64,000 nucleotides of DNA. Source: Escherichia coli (lineage in GTDB: Bacteria; Pseudomonadota; Gammaproteobacteria; Enterobacterales; Enterobacteriaceae). Every line of letters begins with the position of its first letter. The first letter of the stretch is position 1. The position numbers and the translations under genes were made by a program. The notes beneath the pieces were generated by a model. That model had not been told where the DNA came from and ran no database searches. It worked only from the letters and a program-made list of their open reading frames with translations. Location of the stretch: the NCBI GenBank assembly GCA_009729775.1, contig GCA_009729775.1_4081.1; one strand, written 5' to 3'. Of the stretch, positions 9,249-50,143 are shown piece after piece.

Positions 9249-10481
9249 TTACTTATACCATTGCATTTCTCTGATATCAATGATAATTTTTGATGCTAAT
9301 TTAATGTTTGGTTTTTTGGGAAGTACTGATTTCTTATATAGAACATCACGAATGTATTGTACTTTATCATCGAAATATTCTAATACTTCTTCATACTTCC
9401 ACTTACCATTACGAATATCCATCAACATTTGTGCATCAGGTCGTTTAACTTGAATAATTCCACTCTGTAATGCTTCTTCTGCACTATTCAAAAGTCTAAT
9501 TGTGTGCATAGCATGTTTGCAATCGAATCCGTGTTGTGATTCTAAAATAGCACGTTTGGCATTACGATTTTCTTTCCATTTATGATAACTTTTCCTATTC
9601 TCACTATTTTCCTGATATTCTTTTTCGTTAAATTTTACAATTAGTTCTGGTTTGGTTTTCAACTCTTCAGTACTACGCTCTTTAGAAAAATAACGCAATG
9701 AACCATCACCATTGATAGTACTTTCATTCGGATTTTTAATAATCGCAAAAATGTTTTCTCCGTAATGAATTAGTTCATAGCCATTATTAAAATTCAATAA
9801 ATTGAAATCACGATCTAGAATTTTATCAGTAGTGTAGTTATGCACTAATCTTACAAAATGATATTGCTTTAATGGATTTTTCGAAACTAACTGCAATGAC
9901 GTATCACGCATATATTTTTCAAAATCAATCTTTTTAGCATTAAATGGATGTAAGTTCGATGTATCTAAACGTTCAACAAGATATTGTGGAAATGAATCAT
10001 ACATCCACGCAAGAACCTCATCGACTGGGTGTTCTTCTAAAATCTCATTTAATCGTTTTTCAGCAATACGCTCTTTATCCATCCAACCGTGATGATTTGT
10101 CATACGCTTAATCTGATTATATGCATATCCAGTGTATGAAAATGCAATCTTGGAACTAAGAAGTTTTTGGTTAAATGAACGAAGATAGTCATAAATTTCA
10201 GTACTTTCAACAATGTGTTCAGGTTCAACCCAAAGTGATTCAAGAATATTAGGGTTAGCTTCAGTGTATAATTTTAAATACTGATTCAACTCATAGAATT
10301 TAGTATCTTCTTCGCTTTTATCAGCTACCTCTTTGACCTTATAGAAGGGTGTAAGAATAAATTCTTTATTAGCAAGAAAAATACCACGATAATCAGTATC
10401 ACTTTCAGGTGTACTGGTTCCGTAGGCTTGTGACCCAGCCAAGTGTTTCACTATTGTTTGTTCAATATATTGGTTATTCAT
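9249..10481 (-). CDS. Pol-beta-superfamily nucleotidyltransferase (410 aa)
   Basis: N-terminal motif AGSQAYGTSTPESDTDYRGIF = GS-x9-SDxD nucleotidyltransferase signature; rest unassigned. Confidence 0.6.
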   Translation of the reverse strand: MNNQYIEQTIVKHLAGSQAYGTSTPESDTDYRGIFLANKEFILTPFYKVKEVADKSEEDTKFYELNQYLKLYTEANPNILESLWVEPEHIVESTEIYDYLRSFNQKLLSSKIAFSYTGYAYNQIKRMTNHHGWMDKERIAEKRLNEILEEHPVDEVLAWMYDSFPQYLVERLDTSNLHPFNAKKIDFEKYMRDTSLQLVSKNPLKQYHFVRLVHNYTTDKILDRDFNLLNFNNGYELIHYGENIFAIIKNPNESTINGDGSLRYFSKERSTEELKTKPELIVKFNEKEYQENSENRKSYHKWKENRNAKRAILESQHGFDCKHAMHTIRLLNSAEEALQSGIIQVKRPDAQMLMDIRNGKWKYEEVLEYFDDKVQYIRDVLYKKSVLPKKPNIKLASKIIIDIREMQWYK

Positions 10482-24721: not shown

Positions 24722-25098
24722 TTAGTAAAACACGAATTATTACTGATAAGTTCATCAAGTACGTTTTGTACTTCGATAGAATTAATATCAACTTTGTAAT
24801 AATTATAGTTTTTAACTCTAAAATGTTCTTTTGATATATCAACTTTAAATTCAATAATATCAAGATTACCAATAAAATCAGACTTATCAGTTCTTAAATC
24901 CAAAATACCTAATTCCGGTTTTTGTGGTTTACATAAAATCAAACCAAATTTATTTTCTTCAAATGCCTGATTAAACATATCATAATAATCACTAATAACA
25001 AATCTAATATTATCAGTGCTTAACTTTCCTGATTTTCCTTTTTTATAAACAGAAACAATGTTTAGTTCAAAGGTTTTACCAAAGCGTGTGATTTTCAT
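24718..25098 (-). CDS. hypothetical protein (126 aa)
   Basis: ORF track. Confidence 0.55.
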   Translation of the reverse strand: MKITRFGKTFELNIVSVYKKGKSGKLSTDNIRFVISDYYDMFNQAFEENKFGLILCKPQKPELGILDLRTDKSDFIGNLDIIEFKVDISKEHFRVKNYNYYKVDINSIEVQNVLDELISNNSCFTK

Positions 25099-26066
25099 TT
25101 TGGGCTATAACCACTTTTAATTTTAGAAATTACTTTCTTCTCGAAGAACTTACGTGCTTCTTCAATAGTTTCGAATTCTTCACCATCTGTAGTACTAGTT
25201 TTACCAATAGAACCGTACTCAATAATTACTTCACACACTGGAGCATTCAATTCAATATTATAGAATTTGTTTGAAGAATCGTGAACATATTCCAAATGTA
25301 CATTATCAGGAATGTTCTGTACATAATCATAGTTCTTGAAGATAATATCAATCATATTTTCTTCGCCGCGATCAGGAAATATTTCAGTATTATTGAGTAC
25401 TAAACGCTGTGCAGCACGGAACATATCAAAATATTGTTCGCCTTTTTTCAGTTCTTTTGTATCAGAACAGAAATGACCATAATATTCTACATAATCATTC
25501 CAAGGATAAATTCCTTCATCAGCAGTTTCAGACACGTAAGTTTCATCTTGTGGAACTTTAAAACCACGAGTTTTTGGATGAGAAATTAAGCACAGTGAAA
25601 TATTATGACCGATATCTGAATCATCAGTAATACTACCACCAACCATATGAACAACATTTTTAATACTTTCAAAATCTACATCTTCAATTTCATGATACAT
25701 TAAATGTTCTTCAATATTACTTACTAGTAATGAATTACCATTTCCGGCATCGAATTCAAAAATGAAAAGTTCTACACAATCTTCTTCTTTCATTTCAATA
25801 GTATCACTGAGTTTAATATACTCATTTTTTAATTGTTCAATATTTTCATGAGAACCAAAACTATAACGTGAACTGATATAACTACTACCGTCCAACCATC
25901 CCATATCCCAAGGTTCTTCTGACATGTATTCTGAGCTATAGAAATCAGTCAAATCATCTCTCTGAGTACAAACCGTAAGAGAACGAACATTACTAAGACC
26001 TTGAACTTCAAGATTCAGCACTGTAGTATTGCCAATTTTTTGTTCAGAAATAATTTTAGTTTTCAT
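25095..26066 (-). CDS. protein with C-terminal WGR-like domain (323 aa)
   Basis: C-terminus NKFYNIELNAPVCEVIIEYGSIGKTSTTDGEEFETIEEARKFFEKKVISKIKSGY resembles the WGR motif pattern; N-terminal 260 aa unassigned. Confidence 0.55.
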   Translation of the reverse strand: MKTKIISEQKIGNTTVLNLEVQGLSNVRSLTVCTQRDDLTDFYSSEYMSEEPWDMGWLDGSSYISSRYSFGSHENIEQLKNEYIKLSDTIEMKEEDCVELFIFEFDAGNGNSLLVSNIEEHLMYHEIEDVDFESIKNVVHMVGGSITDDSDIGHNISLCLISHPKTRGFKVPQDETYVSETADEGIYPWNDYVEYYGHFCSDTKELKKGEQYFDMFRAAQRLVLNNTEIFPDRGEENMIDIIFKNYDYVQNIPDNVHLEYVHDSSNKFYNIELNAPVCEVIIEYGSIGKTSTTDGEEFETIEEARKFFEKKVISKIKSGYSPK

Positions 26067-28331: not shown

Positions 28332-29771
28332 TTACATATTTTCTTCAGCAAATTCAGCCAGTGGTGAACGAACAACACCTTCTAGTTCGATGACACGACA
28401 ACCTGCCCAGTCTTTAAACTTCTCAGTTACATATGTCAAACCACTGTTAACAGGACTAATAAACTTACTGTCAATCTGACTCAAGTTACCCATAATTACT
28501 ACTTTACAGTTTAACCCTGCTCGTGTCAAGATGGTTTTTGCTTGTGCAGGTGTAATGTTTTGGAATTCATCAACTACTAGAATAGTGTTGGTGAATGAAC
28601 GTCCACGTACAAAGTTTAGTGCTTTAAATTGAATAACATTACGTTTCATAATCTCTTCAATACTACCTTGTGGATTGGCATCATCTTTATGAAGAAACTC
28701 TAACGCATCAATCGCGGCTCCACAGAATGGAATCACTTTTTCTGCTTCTGAACCTGGCAAGAAACCAATATCTTCAAACTGTGAGTCTTGAGTTTTAGAG
28801 AAGATGATTCGGTCGTATTTACGTTTTTCCAGTACTAATTCTAATGCAGTAGCAATTGTAATTAGTGTTTTACCAGTACCAGCAGAACCTAGCAGTACTG
28901 TTAGATGTACATCAGGATCGAGAATACTGTTGATGGCGAGTGCTTGTTGGATATTCTTTGCTTTAATATCCCATACTTTAGCACGTAAAGCCACTGATTG
29001 TCCAATGTCTTGGAATACCAAAATATCTTCTGGTGTTAGTGTTCCATCATCTTCCTCAATTGCTGATTGTCCTTCGTACACAAATAATACGTCAGCATCA
29101 TCATATAGATAATCACCGATGCATAGATTTTGTGGAAGCAGATGTTCAATCAAGCTTTTAGAAATGTAATGATACAAACGACGACCAACTTGTTCGGATT
29201 GAATATTAGTATTGGTTAAGTTGCTGTATACTTCCCAAAAATTGATTTCCAGATGGTGTTGACCAATGTGAATCAAATCACTATCACCAATAACAATATC
29301 ATGGCGATAATCTTGTACCTCGACACCATAACTTAGTGCTTTGATACGCATGTTGATATCACGAGTTACCAGTACTGATTCTGTTGCTAAAGCTACCAGA
29401 ATGATTTTATCATCAGGTACAGTACTTTTGAGAAGGGTTTGAACTTTCTCTTCTGTACCTTTAGTACGAATTAGTGCCTCAGCTTCTTCGTTTGTAATAA
29501 CAAACAATTTGCTATCAGGATTCATATTGGTATGAACATCAGCAATATTAACACCAGTACTACTAATCTCGTCATGTGATGCATCTGCAATAATTGCTTC
29601 AATGTTACGAATAGCAACACGAGCATCGCGTGAAACATCTACATTACGACTCTTAATCGAATCTAATTCTTCCAGTACTGTAAATGGTAGAATGATTGCA
29701 GCACCATCAAAAGCAATAGATGCATTAGGGTCAGATAGTAGTACGTTTGTGTCAATTGTATATTTTTTCAT
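28332..29771 (-). CDS. phoH: PhoH2-type protein: N-terminal PIN domain fused to PhoH-like ATPase (479 aa)
   Basis: PIN signature (YTIDTNVLL, ILPFTVLEELD); Walker A VLLGSAGTGKT and PhoH-like C-terminal half. Confidence 0.85.
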   Translation of the reverse strand: MKKYTIDTNVLLSDPNASIAFDGAAIILPFTVLEELDSIKSRNVDVSRDARVAIRNIEAIIADASHDEISSTGVNIADVHTNMNPDSKLFVITNEEAEALIRTKGTEEKVQTLLKSTVPDDKIILVALATESVLVTRDINMRIKALSYGVEVQDYRHDIVIGDSDLIHIGQHHLEINFWEVYSNLTNTNIQSEQVGRRLYHYISKSLIEHLLPQNLCIGDYLYDDADVLFVYEGQSAIEEDDGTLTPEDILVFQDIGQSVALRAKVWDIKAKNIQQALAINSILDPDVHLTVLLGSAGTGKTLITIATALELVLEKRKYDRIIFSKTQDSQFEDIGFLPGSEAEKVIPFCGAAIDALEFLHKDDANPQGSIEEIMKRNVIQFKALNFVRGRSFTNTILVVDEFQNITPAQAKTILTRAGLNCKVVIMGNLSQIDSKFISPVNSGLTYVTEKFKDWAGCRVIELEGVVRSPLAEFAEENM

Positions 29772-30134: not shown

Positions 30135-30451
30135 AATGCGTTAAATCCATTGTTTAAGTATGTTTCAATATTAATTTTACCAACAGGATTACTACTGTGA
30201 ACAAAGTACTCAAACGGTTCTTTAATATTATTATCAAACATATAATCAATAAGAAACTTAGCAAAAGAATATCCAGTCTTTTCGTCTTCGCTCACATCAC
30301 CCAAGTCATGGTCGAATGATACAAATGCTGGAATTCCATTTTCAATAACATATTCACATGCACTTTTAAAGTCACGACATACCACCATATCTTGGTTTGG
30401 ATAATATAGATTTGCATCACGAATATCATCCAAAAACATTGCGTAAGACAT
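30131..30451 (-). CDS. hypothetical protein (106 aa)
   Basis: ORF track; ATGA overlap. Confidence 0.55.
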   Translation of the reverse strand: MSYAMFLDDIRDANLYYPNQDMVVCRDFKSACEYVIENGIPAFVSFDHDLGDVSEDEKTGYSFAKFLIDYMFDNNIKEPFEYFVHSSNPVGKINIETYLNNGFNAL

Positions 30452-30460
30452 GTTAAACTC

Positions 30461-31012
30461 CTATAGATAACTAATTAGTAAGTTTTCTTTTTGAATCAGA
30501 TACTCCAATTCTTGTTTTGCTGTACCGATGAAGTTCTGTGTCATAAGATTATTATATCCCGCTTCTCGATTTTGTCCCTTAGAATAACGAGAAATATGAC
30601 ATAAATTTACACCAGCAACTTCAGCACTCGCATGTTTAGCATTAGTGTATCCATCTCTAATGTGTTTCAACTCGTCATAGCTTACTTCATAGCTAAAACT
30701 ATGACTGTTTGCACCTGGGTAAATTTCAAAAGTTTTGAGTGGTCGAAGATGGGAAACAAAAATATTGTAATCCATTTCTTCTTGAACTTCACGACGCAAC
30801 GCATCTTCTAGTGAGATATCAGTACTTTCAACTGTTCCACCACATCCTCCTAGAAGTCCATCCCAACGTAATTGTAGTAATACCAGATTTACTTCTGGTA
30901 TATCATTTAACTCATAGTTTTTGTAAGGGTTGCATTTTCTTGCAAAGAAATAGCAAAATACAAAATTTGCACGTGAGCCATATTCACCAAAGGGAACTTC
31001 TTTAACACTCAT
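30461..31012 (-). CDS. Nudix-family hydrolase (183 aa)
   Basis: Nudix-box-like GGCGGTVESTDISLEDALRREVQEEMD (REVQEE core; spacing slightly atypical); start overlaps Sir2-like stop (ATGA). Confidence 0.6.
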   Translation of the reverse strand: MSVKEVPFGEYGSRANFVFCYFFARKCNPYKNYELNDIPEVNLVLLQLRWDGLLGGCGGTVESTDISLEDALRREVQEEMDYNIFVSHLRPLKTFEIYPGANSHSFSYEVSYDELKHIRDGYTNAKHASAEVAGVNLCHISRYSKGQNREAGYNNLMTQNFIGTAKQELEYLIQKENLLISYL

Positions 31013-31767
31013 TTCATACGTTCCTTAATTATAGTCTCTAGATGTGGTATTGCTTTGGTTGCTGGCTTGATAACTTTTTCATTAAACAAAAAATCATTAT
31101 CATTTTTACGAATGTTAACATTAACACTATAACATGGTAATGCTGCTGCTAATCTCGACCATACCAGTACTGTATCGCTACTACCAATTACAATAACTGT
31201 ATCATTTTCATTAAGAGATTTCAACACATTATTTCGTTCTTCGTAAATTGGTAAGCGTATACCATCAACATAACGATGATATTCTCCAATCATTACTACA
31301 TTTGGTTTAGCAAAAACATCATGTTTTGGTATGTATGGTTCGTATCCGCAGTTAATAACATTATAATCATCAGAATTGATACTATAATTTTCAATAACTT
31401 CACACAAGTTTCCATGAAGTTTAAGCTCATGACCACCAATACGAGTATAAAGATCGTCCATGTTAGAAGTCATATGAAGGAAGCAATCACCATATTGATC
31501 TTCTAACGATTTTATAAAATAATGCATTGCATTTGGTTCGCATTGTCCCAATTTTACACGTAATGTATTATAGAAAGAATGAACAACATGATATTTTGTA
31601 GTTAAACTAGCAATGTTACATACATCATTAATTTTAAATGTATCCCACAAACCATCATCAAATCGAAAAGGTTCCATCCCACTTTCAACGGAAAGTCCTG
31701 CACCTGATATAATCAGTAATCGTTTTTTACCTTCATTGCTTATAAATTTTTCTGATATCATATTCAA
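31009..31767 (-). CDS. Sir2-family (sirtuin-like, NAD-binding) protein lacking the Zn-ribbon (252 aa)
   Basis: ISGAGLSVESGMEPFR (GAGIS..SGIP.FR), TSNMDDLY (TQNID.LH-like), LHGN, VIVIGSS; no Cys4 module. Confidence 0.8.
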   Translation of the reverse strand: MNMISEKFISNEGKKRLLIISGAGLSVESGMEPFRFDDGLWDTFKINDVCNIASLTTKYHVVHSFYNTLRVKLGQCEPNAMHYFIKSLEDQYGDCFLHMTSNMDDLYTRIGGHELKLHGNLCEVIENYSINSDDYNVINCGYEPYIPKHDVFAKPNVVMIGEYHRYVDGIRLPIYEERNNVLKSLNENDTVIVIGSSDTVLVWSRLAAALPCYSVNVNIRKNDNDFLFNEKVIKPATKAIPHLETIIKERMK

Positions 31768-31770
31768 TCC

Positions 31771-31965
31771 TTATAAAAAACCAATTAAATATATTGATAA
31801 TAACAGAATGATTCCAATATGATAGGCATACATAAAATTATTATCTTTGTGATAACCATTGGATTTCAAGTCCCTGTATAAGCATTTAGCATTGTTATAA
31901 ATTACAACAATAAAAAAAACTATAAAAAAACTCAAAACCCATTCATAAATTGTGTATGCCATCAT
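31771..31965 (-). CDS. small membrane protein (64 aa, 2 TM)
   Basis: two hydrophobic helices; between HslV-like and Sir2-like genes. Confidence 0.45.
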   Translation of the reverse strand: MMAYTIYEWVLSFFIVFFIVVIYNNAKCLYRDLKSNGYHKDNNFMYAYHIGIILLLSIYLIGFL

Positions 31966-31989
31966 CTATTCTCTTATAATTATATAATT

Positions 31990-32586
31990 TTAATACTTTA
32001 AAACATCAAACTCGGCACTTACACTAGTTACATTATCACTGACAATTTTAAAAATTGATTTGATGCGTTCATGTAGTGGCACTTTTGATTCATTTTCAAC
32101 TTCAATATATGCTTGCATTGCTGCAATAGCATGATATGTTCCGCTACCTACGGCGGTGATTCGTGTTTTCGGTTGAAGAACTGAAAAATCTTCTTGAACT
32201 TCATAAATTGTATGATTGTGAAGAATGATGAACTGTCCACCACCTACTTCTTGTGAAGGATCACGAGAACCCCATTCCTCTTTGAACATTTGACGAATAA
32301 TAGGAATAACTTTCAGTACTAAGTACTGTGGAAACGTCTCATTTGCATCTTGCTGTGGTAGATTCAAACTGTAAGTAAGAAGTTGACCCATACGGAATGA
32401 TGTGGTGTAACCAATCGCCATAATTTCTTTTGTACGGGTCAAACCAGCATCATCATTGATTTTAATGAATTCTTTCTCAAATACTTTAGGCTCAGTTTGA
32501 ACGGACTTTGTGAACCCGTTACTTCCCAGTTTGTCCCCTGCAATAAAAGAAGTTACACCATCAGTGTGTGCAATGATACATGTCAT
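31990..32586 (-). CDS. HslV/proteasome-beta-like Ntn-hydrolase peptidase (~198 aa)
   Basis: start set to ATG 32584-32586 giving N-terminus M-TCIIAHTDGVTSFIAGD (cf. HslV TTIVSVRRNGHVVIAGDG, Thr1 nucleophile after Met removal) and RITAVGSGTYHAIAAMQA (cf. HslV LIAIGSGGPYAQAAARA); comparison with HslV from memory. Confidence 0.6.
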   Translation of the reverse strand: MTCIIAHTDGVTSFIAGDKLGSNGFTKSVQTEPKVFEKEFIKINDDAGLTRTKEIMAIGYTTSFRMGQLLTYSLNLPQQDANETFPQYLVLKVIPIIRQMFKEEWGSRDPSQEVGGGQFIILHNHTIYEVQEDFSVLQPKTRITAVGSGTYHAIAAMQAYIEVENESKVPLHERIKSIFKIVSDNVTSVSAEFDVLKY

Positions 32587-32843
32587 AAAATAGCTCCAAT
32601 TGCAAATAAAGTTGTATATAAAATATAAATCAATGTACCTAATAACATTAGACACACCAAATATGATGTTGCCAGAACATAATAAATTATTGCTTCAAAC
32701 TTTGAATTGAACTTCATTGTTGTGTTATCAATAAAGCCATTTTTGTAATCTTTGTAAATGAAAACTGTTAGGAAAAGTACAGTAATATACATCACTACTG
32801 TAGCATAAAAAATAATAGATGTCAAATTTTGGATGTTTGTCAT
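32583..32843 (-). CDS. small membrane protein (86 aa, ~3 TM)
   Basis: hydrophobic helices; stop overlaps the HslV-like start (ATGA). Confidence 0.5.
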   Translation of the reverse strand: MTNIQNLTSIIFYATVVMYITVLFLTVFIYKDYKNGFIDNTTMKFNSKFEAIIYYVLATSYLVCLMLLGTLIYILYTTLFAIGAIL

Positions 32844-32913
32844 AGTTATATAATCTCAATATAATTAATAACAAAGGAAGTACATCATAATCATCCTGTT
32901 ATTTTAATTATTT

Positions 32914-33522
32914 TTATTGTTTGACTGAACCGTAAAAAACCAGTTCTGGTTTTGTTAATATTACAACATCTTCACCACGCGAACGGCTAACTTTATATAG
33001 AACGTCTGGTGGAATTCCATTTGCAGAATATAGTGTAAATAGAAAACCTACTTTAGTTGCCATTTCTTCAGTAAAAGTTGATAGCTGCCTAACTGATACA
33101 AAAGAATTATCACCGTCTTTAACATTACTTTTAATAGAAATGTTATGAAGTCCCAGTACTGAGCGATTTATCATGTATCGCTTTTCAAAAGCTACACTGA
33201 AGAATACCACAGTACATGCTGAGTTGCAATACCTAGAAACAATTAAATTTATACCATTGTCTCTAACGAAGTTTGCCATTTTAATCCCAGCATCAAAATC
33301 ACCACCTGGCGATGTGATGGTAATGGTATCATAGTGTTCTTTATCATACAACTCCATCATACGCTTTAGTGACCCATCCGTAATATCTGAGATGAAATAT
33401 ACATTACGTGTTTCAGGATTGTACTTTATCACATTTTTACTTTCAACACCAGCACTGGCTGGAAAATTTATCAACATCAGAAGCATTACTGCTTGTACTA
33501 CCTCAAGCCATAGTCTTTTCAT
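32914..33522 (-). CDS. secreted ClpP/S49-fold serine peptidase-like protein (202 aa)
   Basis: signal peptide MKRLWLEVVQAVMLLMLINFPASAG; core ITSPGGDFDAGIKMANFV...CNSACTVVF...VLGLHNIS resembles the ClpP/SppA/NfeD pattern. Confidence 0.55.
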   Translation of the reverse strand: MKRLWLEVVQAVMLLMLINFPASAGVESKNVIKYNPETRNVYFISDITDGSLKRMMELYDKEHYDTITITSPGGDFDAGIKMANFVRDNGINLIVSRYCNSACTVVFFSVAFEKRYMINRSVLGLHNISIKSNVKDGDNSFVSVRQLSTFTEEMATKVGFLFTLYSANGIPPDVLYKVSRSRGEDVVILTKPELVFYGSVKQ

Positions 33523-33555
33523 AACAAATCCTTAATTTTGGTTAGGAAGATATAA

Positions 33556-33585
33556 ATAATATAGTACTTAAACACTTAAGTCAAA
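33556..33585 (-). promoter_or_regulatory. sigma70-like promoter TTGACT-17-TATTAT for the 33.5-28.0 kb operon
   Basis: minus-strand TTGACT (plus 33579-33584) and TATTAT (plus 33556-33561); AAGGA RBS before ATG 33520-33522. Confidence 0.4.
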
Positions 33586-33703
33586 CTTTTTCTGTACTTA
33601 ACTCAAATTTCCCTCATCTGATAATCCCCTTAGTACAATCACTGTGAAGATTCTATCACAAACCCATACCAAATGTAAAGCTTTTTTATAAGGAGTGCCC
33701 TTA

Positions 33704-33835
33704 ATGGGGGAACCAATCGCAGGACAAGACCAATTTCCATTCACTTTAGGTGGATATTTAGTTGACGGTGTAAATATAAAAGGTACAACAATCTGTAAAA
33801 GTAGTTGTTTATTAATAAGAGGAAATAAAATATGA
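33704..33835 (+). CDS. small upstream ORF (43 aa) translationally coupled to 33832..34209, not in ORF track
   Basis: AAGGAG RBS 8 nt before ATG 33704; stop TGA overlaps the downstream ATG (ATGA). Confidence 0.4.
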   Translation: MGEPIAGQDQFPFTLGGYLVDGVNIKGTTICKSSCLLIRGNKI

Positions 33836-34209
33836 AAGCTATAGCAGCACAAGGTAAATTACCATTCAATATCGGCGGCTTTTGTGTAACCGCCGCTAAT
33901 ATAAACGGTGAATTGAAATATAACTTGAACATCTTTAATCAACGTTCTAGTTGTGTTTACGATCTTATCGACACTGATTTTAATGTTTATCGTTTTGTAA
34001 CTATAACAAGTTTTGATAAAGATAAAATCAGATTAGATGCAACTAAAACTGCACTAGAGATTGCACCAACTTTAGCAAAAAATACTTTTTGTATTAAGAT
34101 TGATGATAGTGCATTTGCCGAATCATTCCAGTTTCATAAAATTAAATTGAGTACTGGAGAAATGAAATATCACCCTTGGGATTTGTATTATTGTAACATC
34201 CCTGGTTAA
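33832..34209 (+). CDS. hypothetical protein (125 aa); the only clear plus-strand gene
   Basis: GAGGAAA RBS; bounded by a bidirectional terminator. Confidence 0.6.
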   Translation: MKAIAAQGKLPFNIGGFCVTAANINGELKYNLNIFNQRSSCVYDLIDTDFNVYRFVTITSFDKDKIRLDATKTALEIAPTLAKNTFCIKIDDSAFAESFQFHKIKLSTGEMKYHPWDLYYCNIPG

Positions 34210-34210
34210 C

Positions 34211-34240
34211 AAAAAAGGAGCCTTCTGGCTCCTTTTTTTA
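34211..34240. terminator. bidirectional intrinsic terminator (AGGAGCC/GGCTCCT flanked by A6 and U7)
   Basis: perfect 7-bp stem with 4-nt loop between convergent genes. Confidence 0.55.
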
Positions 34241-34492
34241 TTCTACAGTATTAAGCTTCTGACAAATCATGTCAGCTTCTACTCGGTCTTTATAATAAAT
34301 GGTAAATCCAAATCTACTTGTTACCCTTTTCTCACTACGGTGTATACAGTTTACAATATAGTACTTATTATTTTGTGCAGAAAAACGCACTTCATAGTTT
34401 CGTTGAGAAATGTCATTATCATCAATAACAAACATTACTGTTATAAAAAATAATACTAATATTGATAGTAATCCAACAATCATAAATGTCAT
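34238..34492 (-). CDS. small membrane protein (84 aa)
   Basis: N-terminal TM helix IVGLLSILVLFFITVMFVI. Confidence 0.55.
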   Translation of the reverse strand: MTFMIVGLLSILVLFFITVMFVIDDNDISQRNYEVRFSAQNNKYYIVNCIHRSEKRVTSRFGFTIYYKDRVEADMICQKLNTVE

Positions 34493-34980
34493 TGATTCAT
34501 ACCCTTGTCATAAATGCAGTTAACAATAATCCCAGCATCTTCCAGTACTTTAATCGCTTCAGGTGGTGTTCGTGGATAACTTTTGTGATAAATTACACGG
34601 GTAATCCCACTACCTGCGATTAACTTAGAACAAGTATAGCATGGTTGTAGAGTTGTGTAAAGAGTTGCTCCTTGGCGTTCAGTAGGAGAACTATACAGTA
34701 AAGCGTTCATCTCTGCATGGATCTCATGAATATTACTCCACTCATGATGTTCATGTTTTGCTGCATCATCAACCCAGTCTTGAAAACGACCATCGTTCAC
34801 TAAATGTTGATTTACATCACAACAGTTTGGCTGCTTAGATGGCGTTCCATTGTATCCAGTACTCAATACTCTATTATTTTTAACAATAACACAACCAACT
34901 TTTTGTGAAATACATTTACTTTCCTCAGCAACTACTTCTGCTATCTTCAACCAAGTCGTATGTTTCATTATAAGCTCCAA
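34489..34980 (-). CDS. cd: deoxycytidylate (dCMP) deaminase
   Basis: HAEMNALL ... PCYTCSKLIAGSGI zinc signature; 163 aa. Confidence 0.8.
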   Translation of the reverse strand: MELIMKHTTWLKIAEVVAEESKCISQKVGCVIVKNNRVLSTGYNGTPSKQPNCCDVNQHLVNDGRFQDWVDDAAKHEHHEWSNIHEIHAEMNALLYSSPTERQGATLYTTLQPCYTCSKLIAGSGITRVIYHKSYPRTPPEAIKVLEDAGIIVNCIYDKGMNQ

Positions 34981-35449
34981 TACTTAACAATGCGTTTTTA
35001 CACAAATCATGAATTTTCATAACTCGAATATAGTTTAACACATCTGTTTCATTAATTTCAAATGGTTTATCTGCATATGTAGACCATGTTTGATTTAATT
35101 CAATCACAAATGTAATTTTGTCTGTATCCATAATATTATCACAAAATCTACGAAAATCTTGCTCTTCATCGGAAAGTCTGAAATTTAAATCATTTTTTAA
35201 ACCATTAACAGTGAAGCAAATACCAGTACTGTAACCGATGCAAATATCTTCAATATCATATAATCCATAAATTAATTTAGAGATAAAAGTGCTATATTTG
35301 TTTCTATGATAATAGTTTAATATTTCTTGTTTAATATTAATTTCAATATCAGTAGTTTTTTGTAATGTAAGTTTAATTAATTCTAATGTCTTGATTATGT
35401 TATCTAACCAGATATTAGTATCATCTATACTTAGGTGTGTGTATTTCAT
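34925..35449 (-). CDS. hypothetical protein (174 aa)
   Basis: ORF track. Confidence 0.55.
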   Translation of the reverse strand: MKYTHLSIDDTNIWLDNIIKTLELIKLTLQKTTDIEINIKQEILNYYHRNKYSTFISKLIYGLYDIEDICIGYSTGICFTVNGLKNDLNFRLSDEEQDFRRFCDNIMDTDKITFVIELNQTWSTYADKPFEINETDVLNYIRVMKIHDLCKNALLSIGAYNETYDLVEDSRSSC

Positions 35450-49000: not shown

Positions 49001-50143
49001 CTAAAAATCCTTTAGTACAATTTTCATGTATTTTATAAGAGTCTCTTTGTAATCAACTTTCTTATTGTTATACATTGCAAAGGCCAAGCCCTGACGATTC
49101 AGTTCATTAGTTAAACACTCCTGAACCTTCATTGCGAATTCCTTTCGCTCCAAGTGCTTGTGTTCCTTGACGAAGCTTTCTACTTCATCTTGTAATGCAT
49201 TATAGCACGAAAATACCAATTGTTCCATTCTTAATATCTTTTGCATAGCATATTCATCAGTACTGAACAATTGTTTTAAATCATCACTAGAACCATTTAA
49301 TACTGCTTCATATAAATGAGAATCAATAATAATACTATCTTTTGTAAGATGTAATGAACTGTACCAGTCAGTCTTTATTTTACACATTGTCCCATTATTT
49401 AGGATGCACACAAAACCCTCAATATCAAGCATTTTATGAACTTCCTCCACGCTTTCACGGAAGGTATTTCGTACCGGAAAAGTGTGATGAATATCTTTTC
49501 CAGTCATATTAGTACTGTACTGTGCAAGACATGGAAACTTATCACGTAGTGCTTTACCACATAGCAACTCACCACTCACACGATGACGAACGTTCAGTAC
49601 AAACAGTTGTTCTACCTGATATGGTAATACAATTCGGTACTCTGGGCTTGTATACTCCATATTAACTGTGTAACCTAAACGTTCCGCTTCGTCGATGTAC
49701 TGATACAAATTCTGGTTCTCGTTAATAAGTCGAGTACTGTTAATCGCATGGTCAGAGTACAATGCAGTATGTGATTTACAACGAATCTCACCATCATTAT
49801 CACGGTAAGTACTGATTACTGAACCATCCAACTTAGGCATCACTACTGCAATGTCATTACATGTGGTGTTGGCAGGGAACATTGTAGCAGGATTCTCATA
49901 AGCATTAAAGAACTTTTTCATAGTACGGGCAGCACAACGAATCATTTCACCTTCTTCATCAATTTCCCACATAGATCCACGGGTTTCTAATGCATTGGGT
50001 TGCATGAAATCAGTATATGATGCTAGTCGGTAACTGAATACACGATACGTGCCACCAGCAGGACTTTTATGATCTACATAAAAGAACGCATCGTTTGTAT
50101 TACATAAGTGCATTAAATCTTCATATATTTGCAAAAGGGTCAT
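49001..50143 (-). CDS. rnlA: RNA ligase 1 (T4 Rnl1-like)
   Basis: N-terminus and KxDG adenylation motif (MPKLDGS) closely parallel T4 RnlA as I recall it; 380 aa; AGAGGT RBS. Confidence 0.9.
   Translation of the reverse strand: MTLLQIYEDLMHLCNTNDAFFYVDHKSPAGGTYRVFSYRLASYTDFMQPNALETRGSMWEIDEEGEMIRCAARTMKKFFNAYENPATMFPANTTCNDIAVVMPKLDGSVISTYRDNDGEIRCKSHTALYSDHAINSTRLINENQNLYQYIDEAERLGYTVNMEYTSPEYRIVLPYQVEQLFVLNVRHRVSGELLCGKALRDKFPCLAQYSTNMTGKDIHHTFPVRNTFRESVEEVHKMLDIEGFVCILNNGTMCKIKTDWYSSLHLTKDSIIIDSHLYEAVLNGSSDDLKQLFSTDEYAMQKILRMEQLVFSCYNALQDEVESFVKEHKHLERKEFAMKVQECLTNELNRQGLAFAMYNNKKVDYKETLIKYMKIVLKDF

Follow-up and report, generated by a model that had tools for sequence, protein, structure and literature searches.

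A probable proteasome-like threonine peptidase of Asteriusvirus-like jumbo phages and its relation to HslV and other proteasome homologues

Phage-borne proteasome homologues and the locus studied

Phage-borne homologues of the proteasome, designated PPH, AAH and CPH, are known to be compact and propeptide-free (Fuchs, Alva and Lupas 2021, PMC8665760). Another relative, BPH, assembles into heptameric double rings and possesses a long acidic pore loop (PMC8665760). The present work deals with a gene of this kind in a stretch of 64,000 nucleotides (nt), here called the window, which was taken from an Escherichia coli assembly (GCA_009729775.1, contig GCA_009729775.1_4081.1). It encodes a protein of 198 amino acids (aa), below called the peptidase. 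Sequence and structure model make it likely that this protein is a catalytically competent, cytoplasmic Ntn (N-terminal nucleophile) hydrolase of the proteasome-like (MEROPS T1) type, belonging to the compact 'group I'. The gene, its fold assignment and the existence of phage proteasome homologues had all been recorded before, and the locus is no new kind of system.

The DNA is of phage origin. A 3-kb stretch around the peptidase locus matches Escherichia phage 121Q (Asteriusvirus, 348.5 kb) at 99.3% identity and about 20 further jumbo coliphages and Salmonella phages at 91-93%; the window corresponds roughly to 187.9-251.9 kb of the 121Q genome (NC_025447) in reversed orientation. The peptidase itself is 100% identical to 121Q gp475 (GenBank AIT14365.1), annotated as 'protease (ClpYQ-like)' since the deposition of 121Q. 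The RefSeq name 'peptidase HslV family' is given to 121Q gp475 and to its counterparts in PBECO4, Eps7-like phages and others.

A preliminary description of this DNA had proposed an HslV-like peptidase gene between two small membrane-protein genes. All three open reading frames (ORFs) were found on the minus strand, in the order 86-aa ORF, peptidase, 64-aa ORF, followed by a Sir2 gene:

31990-32586, minus strand: peptidase coding sequence, 198 aa, stop codon included; 121Q gp475
32583-32843, minus strand: 86-aa ORF with two predicted transmembrane (TM) segments; 121Q gp474; co-oriented and translationally coupled with the peptidase gene
31771-31965, minus strand: 64-aa ORF with two predicted TM segments, 24 nt past the peptidase stop
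32583-32586, minus strand: ATGA overlap of the 86-aa ORF stop and the peptidase start, read from the sequence

Start codon and N-terminal threonine

The mechanically delimited peptidase ORF comprises 221 aa and begins with a GTG at 32655. The corrected start is the ATG at 32586, as had been proposed before, because a GGAG motif lies upstream of this ATG, homologues start with MTC and profile matches begin at residue 1. The encoded N-terminus then reads M-TCIIAHTDG. Two features of the minus strand mark this start:

32594-32597, minus strand: GGAG Shine-Dalgarno motif, 7 nt 5' of the corrected ATG, read from the sequence
32581-32586, minus strand: ATG and ACA codons (Met1-Thr2); Thr2 is the predicted N-terminal nucleophile after removal of Met

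The MTC start is present in 117 of 120 database homologues, and nearly all of the 150 best profile matches begin at protein residue 1. Since both observations place the beginning of the family at this methionine, the peptidase has no propeptide. The threonine T2 is found in 65 of the 66 homologues aligned and was paired with Thr1 of HslV by HMMER as well as by hhalign.

Catalytic residues and fold

In the alignment of 66 diverse homologues the residues D18, K34, G59, Q68, G147, G149 and V189 are invariant, and M1, T2, C3 and I4 as well as the block G-Y-T-T-S-F-R-M-G-Q-L-L are nearly so. The positions that bear on catalysis, together with one clade-specific insertion, are the following:

32533-32535, minus strand: codon of Asp18 (Asp17 equivalent), invariant in 66 of 66 homologues
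32485-32487, minus strand: codon of Lys34 (Lys33 equivalent), invariant in 66 of 66 homologues and aligned to HslV Lys33
32410-32412, minus strand: codon of Gly59, the probable oxyanion-hole glycine, invariant; HslV Gly45, 20S Gly47
32140-32148, minus strand: GSG motif (Gly147-Ser148-Gly149), the serine being the Ser129/Ser124 equivalent; aligned to HslV GSGG
32419-32463, minus strand: insertion of about 14 residues lengthening the S3-S4 beta-hairpin, in the Asteriusvirus-like clade only; hhalign insert columns

Gly59 ends the strand before helix H1 and opens the family signature G-Y-T-T-S-F-R-M-G-Q-L-L. The region previously likened to the GSGG of HslV was recovered as such: residues 145-159 read AVGSGTYHAIAAMQA, and their GSG at 147-149 has two invariant glycines, the position between them being serine in 34, cysteine in 30 and alanine in 2 of the 66 homologues.

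The peptidase matches the PHROG 1040 profile 'peptidase HslV family' with E=1e-23 and 85 bits. In sequence-profile comparisons the family profile covered HslV structures from end to end, with the two Thr1 residues aligned (E 2e-9 to 1e-8); 20S beta subunits and BPH came next, and for E. coli HslV hhalign gave 97% probability and E 8e-11. An AlphaFold model (pLDDT 95, pTM 0.90) has the expected order of strands and helices, with helices at 64-73, 85-104, 150-167 and 171-185 and a chain that ends after the strand 193-197; its topology is that of the proteasome-like alpha-beta-beta-alpha Ntn sandwich. BFVD and PDB served as fold libraries. The Pfam search of the peptidase returned no match at E<=1, and relatives score 17.6-19.8 bits against PF00227, whose cut-off is 22.4. 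This sub-threshold score reflects divergence and is no sign of a different fold. The proposal of a phage-encoded Ntn peptidase resembling HslV and the proteasome is thus borne out by residues, profile matches and fold alike; a non-Ntn fold or a loss of the catalytic Thr or Lys, either of which would have spoken against it, was looked for and did not appear.

The hairpin insertion is reflected in the distance between Lys34 and Gly59, which is 24-25 residues in the Asteriusvirus-like clade versus 10 in most family members. The model places strands at 35-43 and 51-60 here (pLDDT about 93). At the same S3-S4 site connectase carries its active-site lid (PMC8665760). The extension of the hairpin may, speculatively, shape the access of substrates.

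Mode of action and the search for an unfoldase

Taken together, the peptidase is probably a proteasome-like threonine peptidase that is processed at its methionine, forms rings and works independently of an unfoldase. Translation starts at the ATG at 32586, coupled to the 86-aa ORF upstream, as the sequence shows. Threonine being a permissive second residue, the host methionine aminopeptidase would remove fMet and free the alpha-amine of the threonine, as in E. coli HslV. The O-gamma of Thr1 would then attack peptide bonds, helped by Lys33, Asp17, a glycine oxyanion hole and the serine of the GSG motif, a scheme suggested by the invariant residues and the fold. If HslV and BPH are a guide, the subunits probably form stacked rings with an internal chamber. 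Substrates would most likely be peptides or loosely folded proteins, cleaved without an unfoldase during the non-structural phase of infection.

Independence from an unfoldase is judged most likely since no HslU is encoded and no ATPase gene is a conserved neighbour. With E. coli HslU as query, tblastn found nothing better than E 3.1 in the window, in line with the earlier statement that no HslU-like ATPase is present there, and a Pfam search of the ten largest window ORFs revealed a PIN-PhoH protein as the sole ATPase. No HslU was found either in the whole 121Q genome, reassembled from its annotated pieces; the only match there covers 46 residues (E 3.6e-4) in the Walker-A/P-loop region of the ClpA-like gp581. 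Among 80 diverse viral loci no ATPase recurred as a neighbour of the peptidase gene. The former term 'standalone' has to be qualified on account of two 121Q genes outside the window: gp581 (NC_025447, 298257-300545), a two-module AAA+ unfoldase of the ClpA/ClpB type (Hsp100), and gp48 (NC_025447, 34461-35006), a ClpS-domain adaptor. In addition, 121Q contains a borderline AAA ATPase, gp563 (NC_025447, 274327-275652), and GroES-, DnaJ- and Hsp70-like genes, altogether a sizeable proteostasis toolkit.

Several points weigh against the reading as an active, unfoldase-independent peptidase of the AAH group. The genes gp581 and gp48 leave room for a phage-encoded partner in the 121Q lineage. E. coli HslV is nearly inactive without HslU, and a peptidase lacking an unfoldase may accordingly be weak. 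The nearest standalone relatives, BPH and Anbu, are not known to have a defined physiological substrate. The equivalent of Ser129 is a cysteine in about half of the family. Thr and Lys are conserved among the three catalytic equivalents named in the preliminary description (Thr1, Lys33, Gly47); for the third, the invariant Gly59 pairs with HslV Gly45 by HMMER, but the register given by hhalign is off by 4 residues. The assignment to AAH over CPH is inferred from descriptions and taxonomic distribution; cluster look-ups did not return the AAH reference sequence WP_035979212. Finally, literature searches found no experimental work on the gene in 121Q-like phages.

Could the host supply the unfoldase? 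The phage peptidase might dock on host HslU hexamers, replacing HslV or competing with it, and thereby redirect ATP-dependent degradation. The E. coli host encodes hslVU, whose HslU would have no phage-encoded substitute; HslV gives the best sequence-profile match, and peptidases of the HslV type as a rule depend on HslU to be fully active. However, the scores for the NCBIfam HslV equivalogs are only 18.3 bits for TIGR03692 (cut-off 157.75) and 19.2 bits for NF003964 (cut-off 137). Because the peptidase falls so far below these cut-offs and no HslU is encoded, it is not an HslV orthologue. Its structure is at least as near to BPH, which has no known unfoldase, and the region following helix H2 is longer than the HslV pore loop. 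A search of the literature for HslV residues in contact with HslU (Lys28) yielded nothing. The family also occurs in lineages reported without HslVU, for example in Actinoplanes, the phylum of which is listed without HslV (PMC8665760, Table 1). Docking on host HslU is for these reasons considered unlikely.

The flanking two-TM ORFs

Each of the two small ORFs contains two hydrophobic segments (Kyte-Doolittle 19-mer peaks 2.0-2.4), so that the description of the peptidase gene as flanked by multi-TM proteins was right in this respect. The overlap of stop and start codons claimed for both junctions exists between the 86-aa ORF and the peptidase, where the ATGA arrangement is likewise annotated in 121Q, SHEFM2K and vB_Ec-M-J, but not on the other side: the peptidase stop (31990-31992) is followed by a gap of 24 nt to the start of the 64-aa ORF. 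From the stop of the latter to the Sir2 start the gap is 3-9 nt. A promoter and terminator scan of 30300-35200 gave 38 promoter-like sites versus 27.9 expected for such AT-rich DNA, by which the transcription unit is not defined.

The 86-aa ORF was found in 36 records of Escherichia and Salmonella jumbo phages, with identity down to 38-42% at conserved length and two-TM pattern, and it accompanies the peptidase in each locus examined; it belongs to no Pfam or PHROG family. The 64-aa ORF is present in 32 records, its length and two-TM pattern being kept down to 49% identity. The SHEFM2K and Turkey5 records annotate it, those of 121Q, PBECO4 and phAPEC6 do not, and it matches weakly a PHROG 'membrane protein' (18969, E=0.0095). 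Outside the Asteriusvirus-like jumbo phages no homologues of either ORF were found.

These observations suggest a further possibility, namely a membrane-associated proteolytic module of Asteriusvirus-like phages that would consist of the peptidase and the two small proteins, the latter acting as anchors, gates or substrates. In its favour are the ATGA coupling, the three-gene order conserved in 32-36 jumbo-phage genomes while the small proteins diverge to 40-50% identity, and the hairpin insertion specific to the clade. Membrane proteins precede the peptidase elsewhere, too. In the Salmonella jumbo phage SE_PL a 79-aa two-TM ORF lies upstream, and Epseptimaviruses carry, between thy (thymidylate synthase) and rnh (RNase H), an insert of three genes that is absent from T5:

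Salmonella phage Seafire, L004 3549-4851, compared with T5, L008 3889-4023: Epseptimavirus insert encoding an unrelated multi-TM protein of 117 aa, the peptidase and a soluble protein of 89 aa

Across the family, however, the pattern dissolves. In 61 diverse viral loci an immediate neighbour with at least one TM segment occurs 7 times upstream and 9 times downstream, the background being 13.8%. TM neighbours are no commoner than this background, and the idea that the family as a whole is associated with membrane proteins was rejected. The small ORFs lack homologues beyond the clade, hydropathy reveals no hydrophobic segment in the peptidase, and in phage Turkey5 an opposite-strand gene for a 302-aa protein with Ig-like repeats (L010 1984-2892) separates the 86-aa ORF from the peptidase and breaks the ATGA coupling. 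Small membrane ORFs are, moreover, a common filler in the early regions of large phages. The TM bracketing is a trait of the Asteriusvirus-like lineage and not a property of the family. A functional tie between the TM proteins and the peptidase is hypothetical and is suggested solely by local synteny and one ATGA overlap. We regard a membrane-associated module as quite improbable, and slightly more doubtful still is the extended version in which peptidase, hairpin insertion and two-TM proteins would together constitute an unfoldase-independent membrane module with selective action on a protein of the host envelope or of host defence, a phage 'mini-proteasome' with a target of its own.

Remaining alternatives

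Within 121Q the peptidase could also be the proteolytic partner of the ClpA-like gp581, aided by the ClpS-like gp48, as the phage encodes both a ClpA/ClpB-type AAA+ protein and a ClpS-domain protein in a genome rich in proteostasis genes. Against this stand the distance of about 79 kb between gp581 and the peptidase gene and the existence of ClpP-like proteins encoded by phage (gp464, gp473) and host alike. In addition, where ClpA has its IGL loop, which docks ClpP, gp581 shows a ClpA-like 'SIGM' loop. T5-like phages and many small ones have the peptidase gene without a conserved ATPase beside it. Such a partnership is very unlikely. Equally remote is the idea that the protein is no protease and acts instead as a ligase or transpeptidase resembling connectase, as an amidohydrolase or as a scaffold without catalytic activity. 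For this one can cite the ligase chemistry supported by the proteasome-like fold in connectase (PMC8665760), the lack of demonstrated protease substrates for the standalone homologues BPH and Anbu, and the position of the S3-S4 insertion, where connectase has its lid.

Distribution and role in infection

The favoured reading, that of a proteasome-like and unfoldase-independent threonine peptidase, concerns a widespread family. Homologues were found by tblastn in 197 phage records, including Eps7-like (T5-like), Aeromonas, Vibrio, Xanthomonas and Moorella phages; at least 600 IMG/VR contigs contain the signature SFRMGQ[LI]L, and 36 viral structure representatives in BFVD share the fold of the peptidase. 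A relative is encoded in 396 bacterial genome stretches, and members are known from Azospirillum, Devosia, Gluconacetobacter, Actinoplanes, Paenibacillus and Oceanobacillus. An exhaustive profile search, counted in clusters at 50% identity, gave 2,664 for E<=1e-30 and 9,138 for E<=1e-3. With the existing annotation, the description of 2021 (PMC8665760), the 197 phage records and the 2,664 clusters, the gene can no longer be called unusual, as it had been in the preliminary description. The Azospirillum homologue is a conserved chromosomal gene near nadE (NAD synthetase), gltX (glutamyl-tRNA synthetase) and a DJ-1/ElbB-like gene and is not phage-like in its surroundings.

In large phages the gene is located among non-structural auxiliary genes (Sir2, Nudix, PhoH, dCMP deaminase, NAD salvage). 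The phAPEC6 orthologue gp345c was not among the 62 virion proteins identified by mass spectrometry, in which its neighbours gp347 and PhoH were detected. A role as prohead or head-maturation protease was rejected because distinct capsid or prohead proteases are encoded alongside: the capsid protease of 121Q is a different, T4 gp21-like protein, and in small phages with the peptidase beside the portal or TerL gene an HK97-type prohead protease or a fusion of protease and major capsid protein is also present.

An association with NAD-related genes recurs and is unexplained. In SE_PL and in Xanthomonas phage XacN1, likewise a jumbo phage, the peptidase adjoins nicotinate phosphoribosyltransferase, nicotinamide mononucleotide (NMN) adenylyltransferase and Sir2; in 121Q it adjoins Sir2 and Nudix genes. 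A different arrangement was seen in Plateaulakevirus (Aeromonas phage 4L372D, L174 2501-3954; L005), where an AAH-like gene of 183 aa is followed by a second, divergent proteasome-like gene. The product of the latter has 294 aa, starts with V-TTIAY and contains a GSG motif and an acidic C-terminal tail, which hints at a two-subunit arrangement. A second paralogue of this kind was also considered for the window and rejected, as no counterpart was found there.

Directly upstream of the 86-aa ORF lies a gene for a ClpP/NfeD-like serine protease, so that two unrelated protease classes adjoin in the gp473 to gp475 region, in an order conserved across Asteriusvirus. The gp473 protein matches PHROG 26024 at 9e-119 and Pfam CLP_protease below threshold, and it bears a hydrophobic signal or anchor at its N-terminus (residues 4-26). 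This gene and further genes identified in the window are:

32914-33522, minus strand: ClpP/NfeD-like serine protease, 121Q gp473
28332-29771, minus strand: PIN-PhoH ATPase, found in phAPEC6 virions
25095-26066, minus strand: WGR-domain protein
9249-10481, minus strand: RlaP-type nucleotidyltransferase
49001-50143, minus strand: T4 Rnl1-type RNA ligase, near a polynucleotide kinase, forming an RNA-repair set

If the favoured reading is right, the peptidase represents a very large, uncharacterised, phage-spread family of proteasome-like proteins that extends over T5-like phages, jumbo phages and many bacteria. The remaining value of the locus lies in this large family, no member of which has been characterised experimentally, and 121Q or Eps7-like coliphages offer tractable systems in which to learn what a proteasome homologue without an unfoldase does in infection.

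Comparison with known proteasome-like systems

HslV (ClpQ), which consists of two stacked hexameric rings and is activated by the C-terminal tails of HslU, is only about 16-25% identical to the phage peptidase. The E. coli HslV gene likewise encodes (f)Met-Thr-Thr, a propeptide being absent in both. In contrast to HslV, the phage family has a conserved cysteine at position 2 of the mature chain; following the oxyanion glycine the phage peptidase reads GYTTSFRMGQLL whereas HslV has GFAGGTADAF; and the phage clade carries the hairpin insertion of 14 residues. The region between H2 and the next strand comprises about 14 residues (105-118), as opposed to the very short pore loop of HslV (PMC8665760). 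From the 20S beta subunits the peptidase differs by the lack of a propeptide, of an alpha-subunit partner and of the C-terminal helix H5, and by remaining below the PF00227 threshold. The profile match to BPH (PDB 5ovs/5ovu) is weak, with E about 1e-4.

Among the relatives themselves, cluster look-ups returned the names 'hypothetical', 'HslVU peptidase subunit' and 'Ntn hydrolase family protein'. The PHROG 1040 profile has 277 positions and probably also takes in longer paralogues such as the 275-294-aa proteins of Aeromonas phages. Family members extended at the C-terminus (250-390 aa) have acidic tails in which neither a Pfam domain nor a 'Rosetta-stone' hint was found.

With respect to the phage-borne groups, an identity with PPH was rejected, since PPH comprises about 140 aa and has no H2, while the peptidase has 198 aa and a confidently predicted H2 (85-104). 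The features of AAH are those of the peptidase: a length of about 180-200 aa, no propeptide, helices H1-H4, neither S12 nor H5 at the C-terminus, and an occurrence in alpha-proteobacteria (Azospirillum), Actinobacteria (Actinoplanes), Firmicutes and many phages. For AAH, the copies in Firmicutes are described as derived from phages (Fuchs et al. 2021). Judged from these described features and the taxonomic distribution, and not from the reference sequence WP_035979212, the peptidase most likely belongs to AAH.

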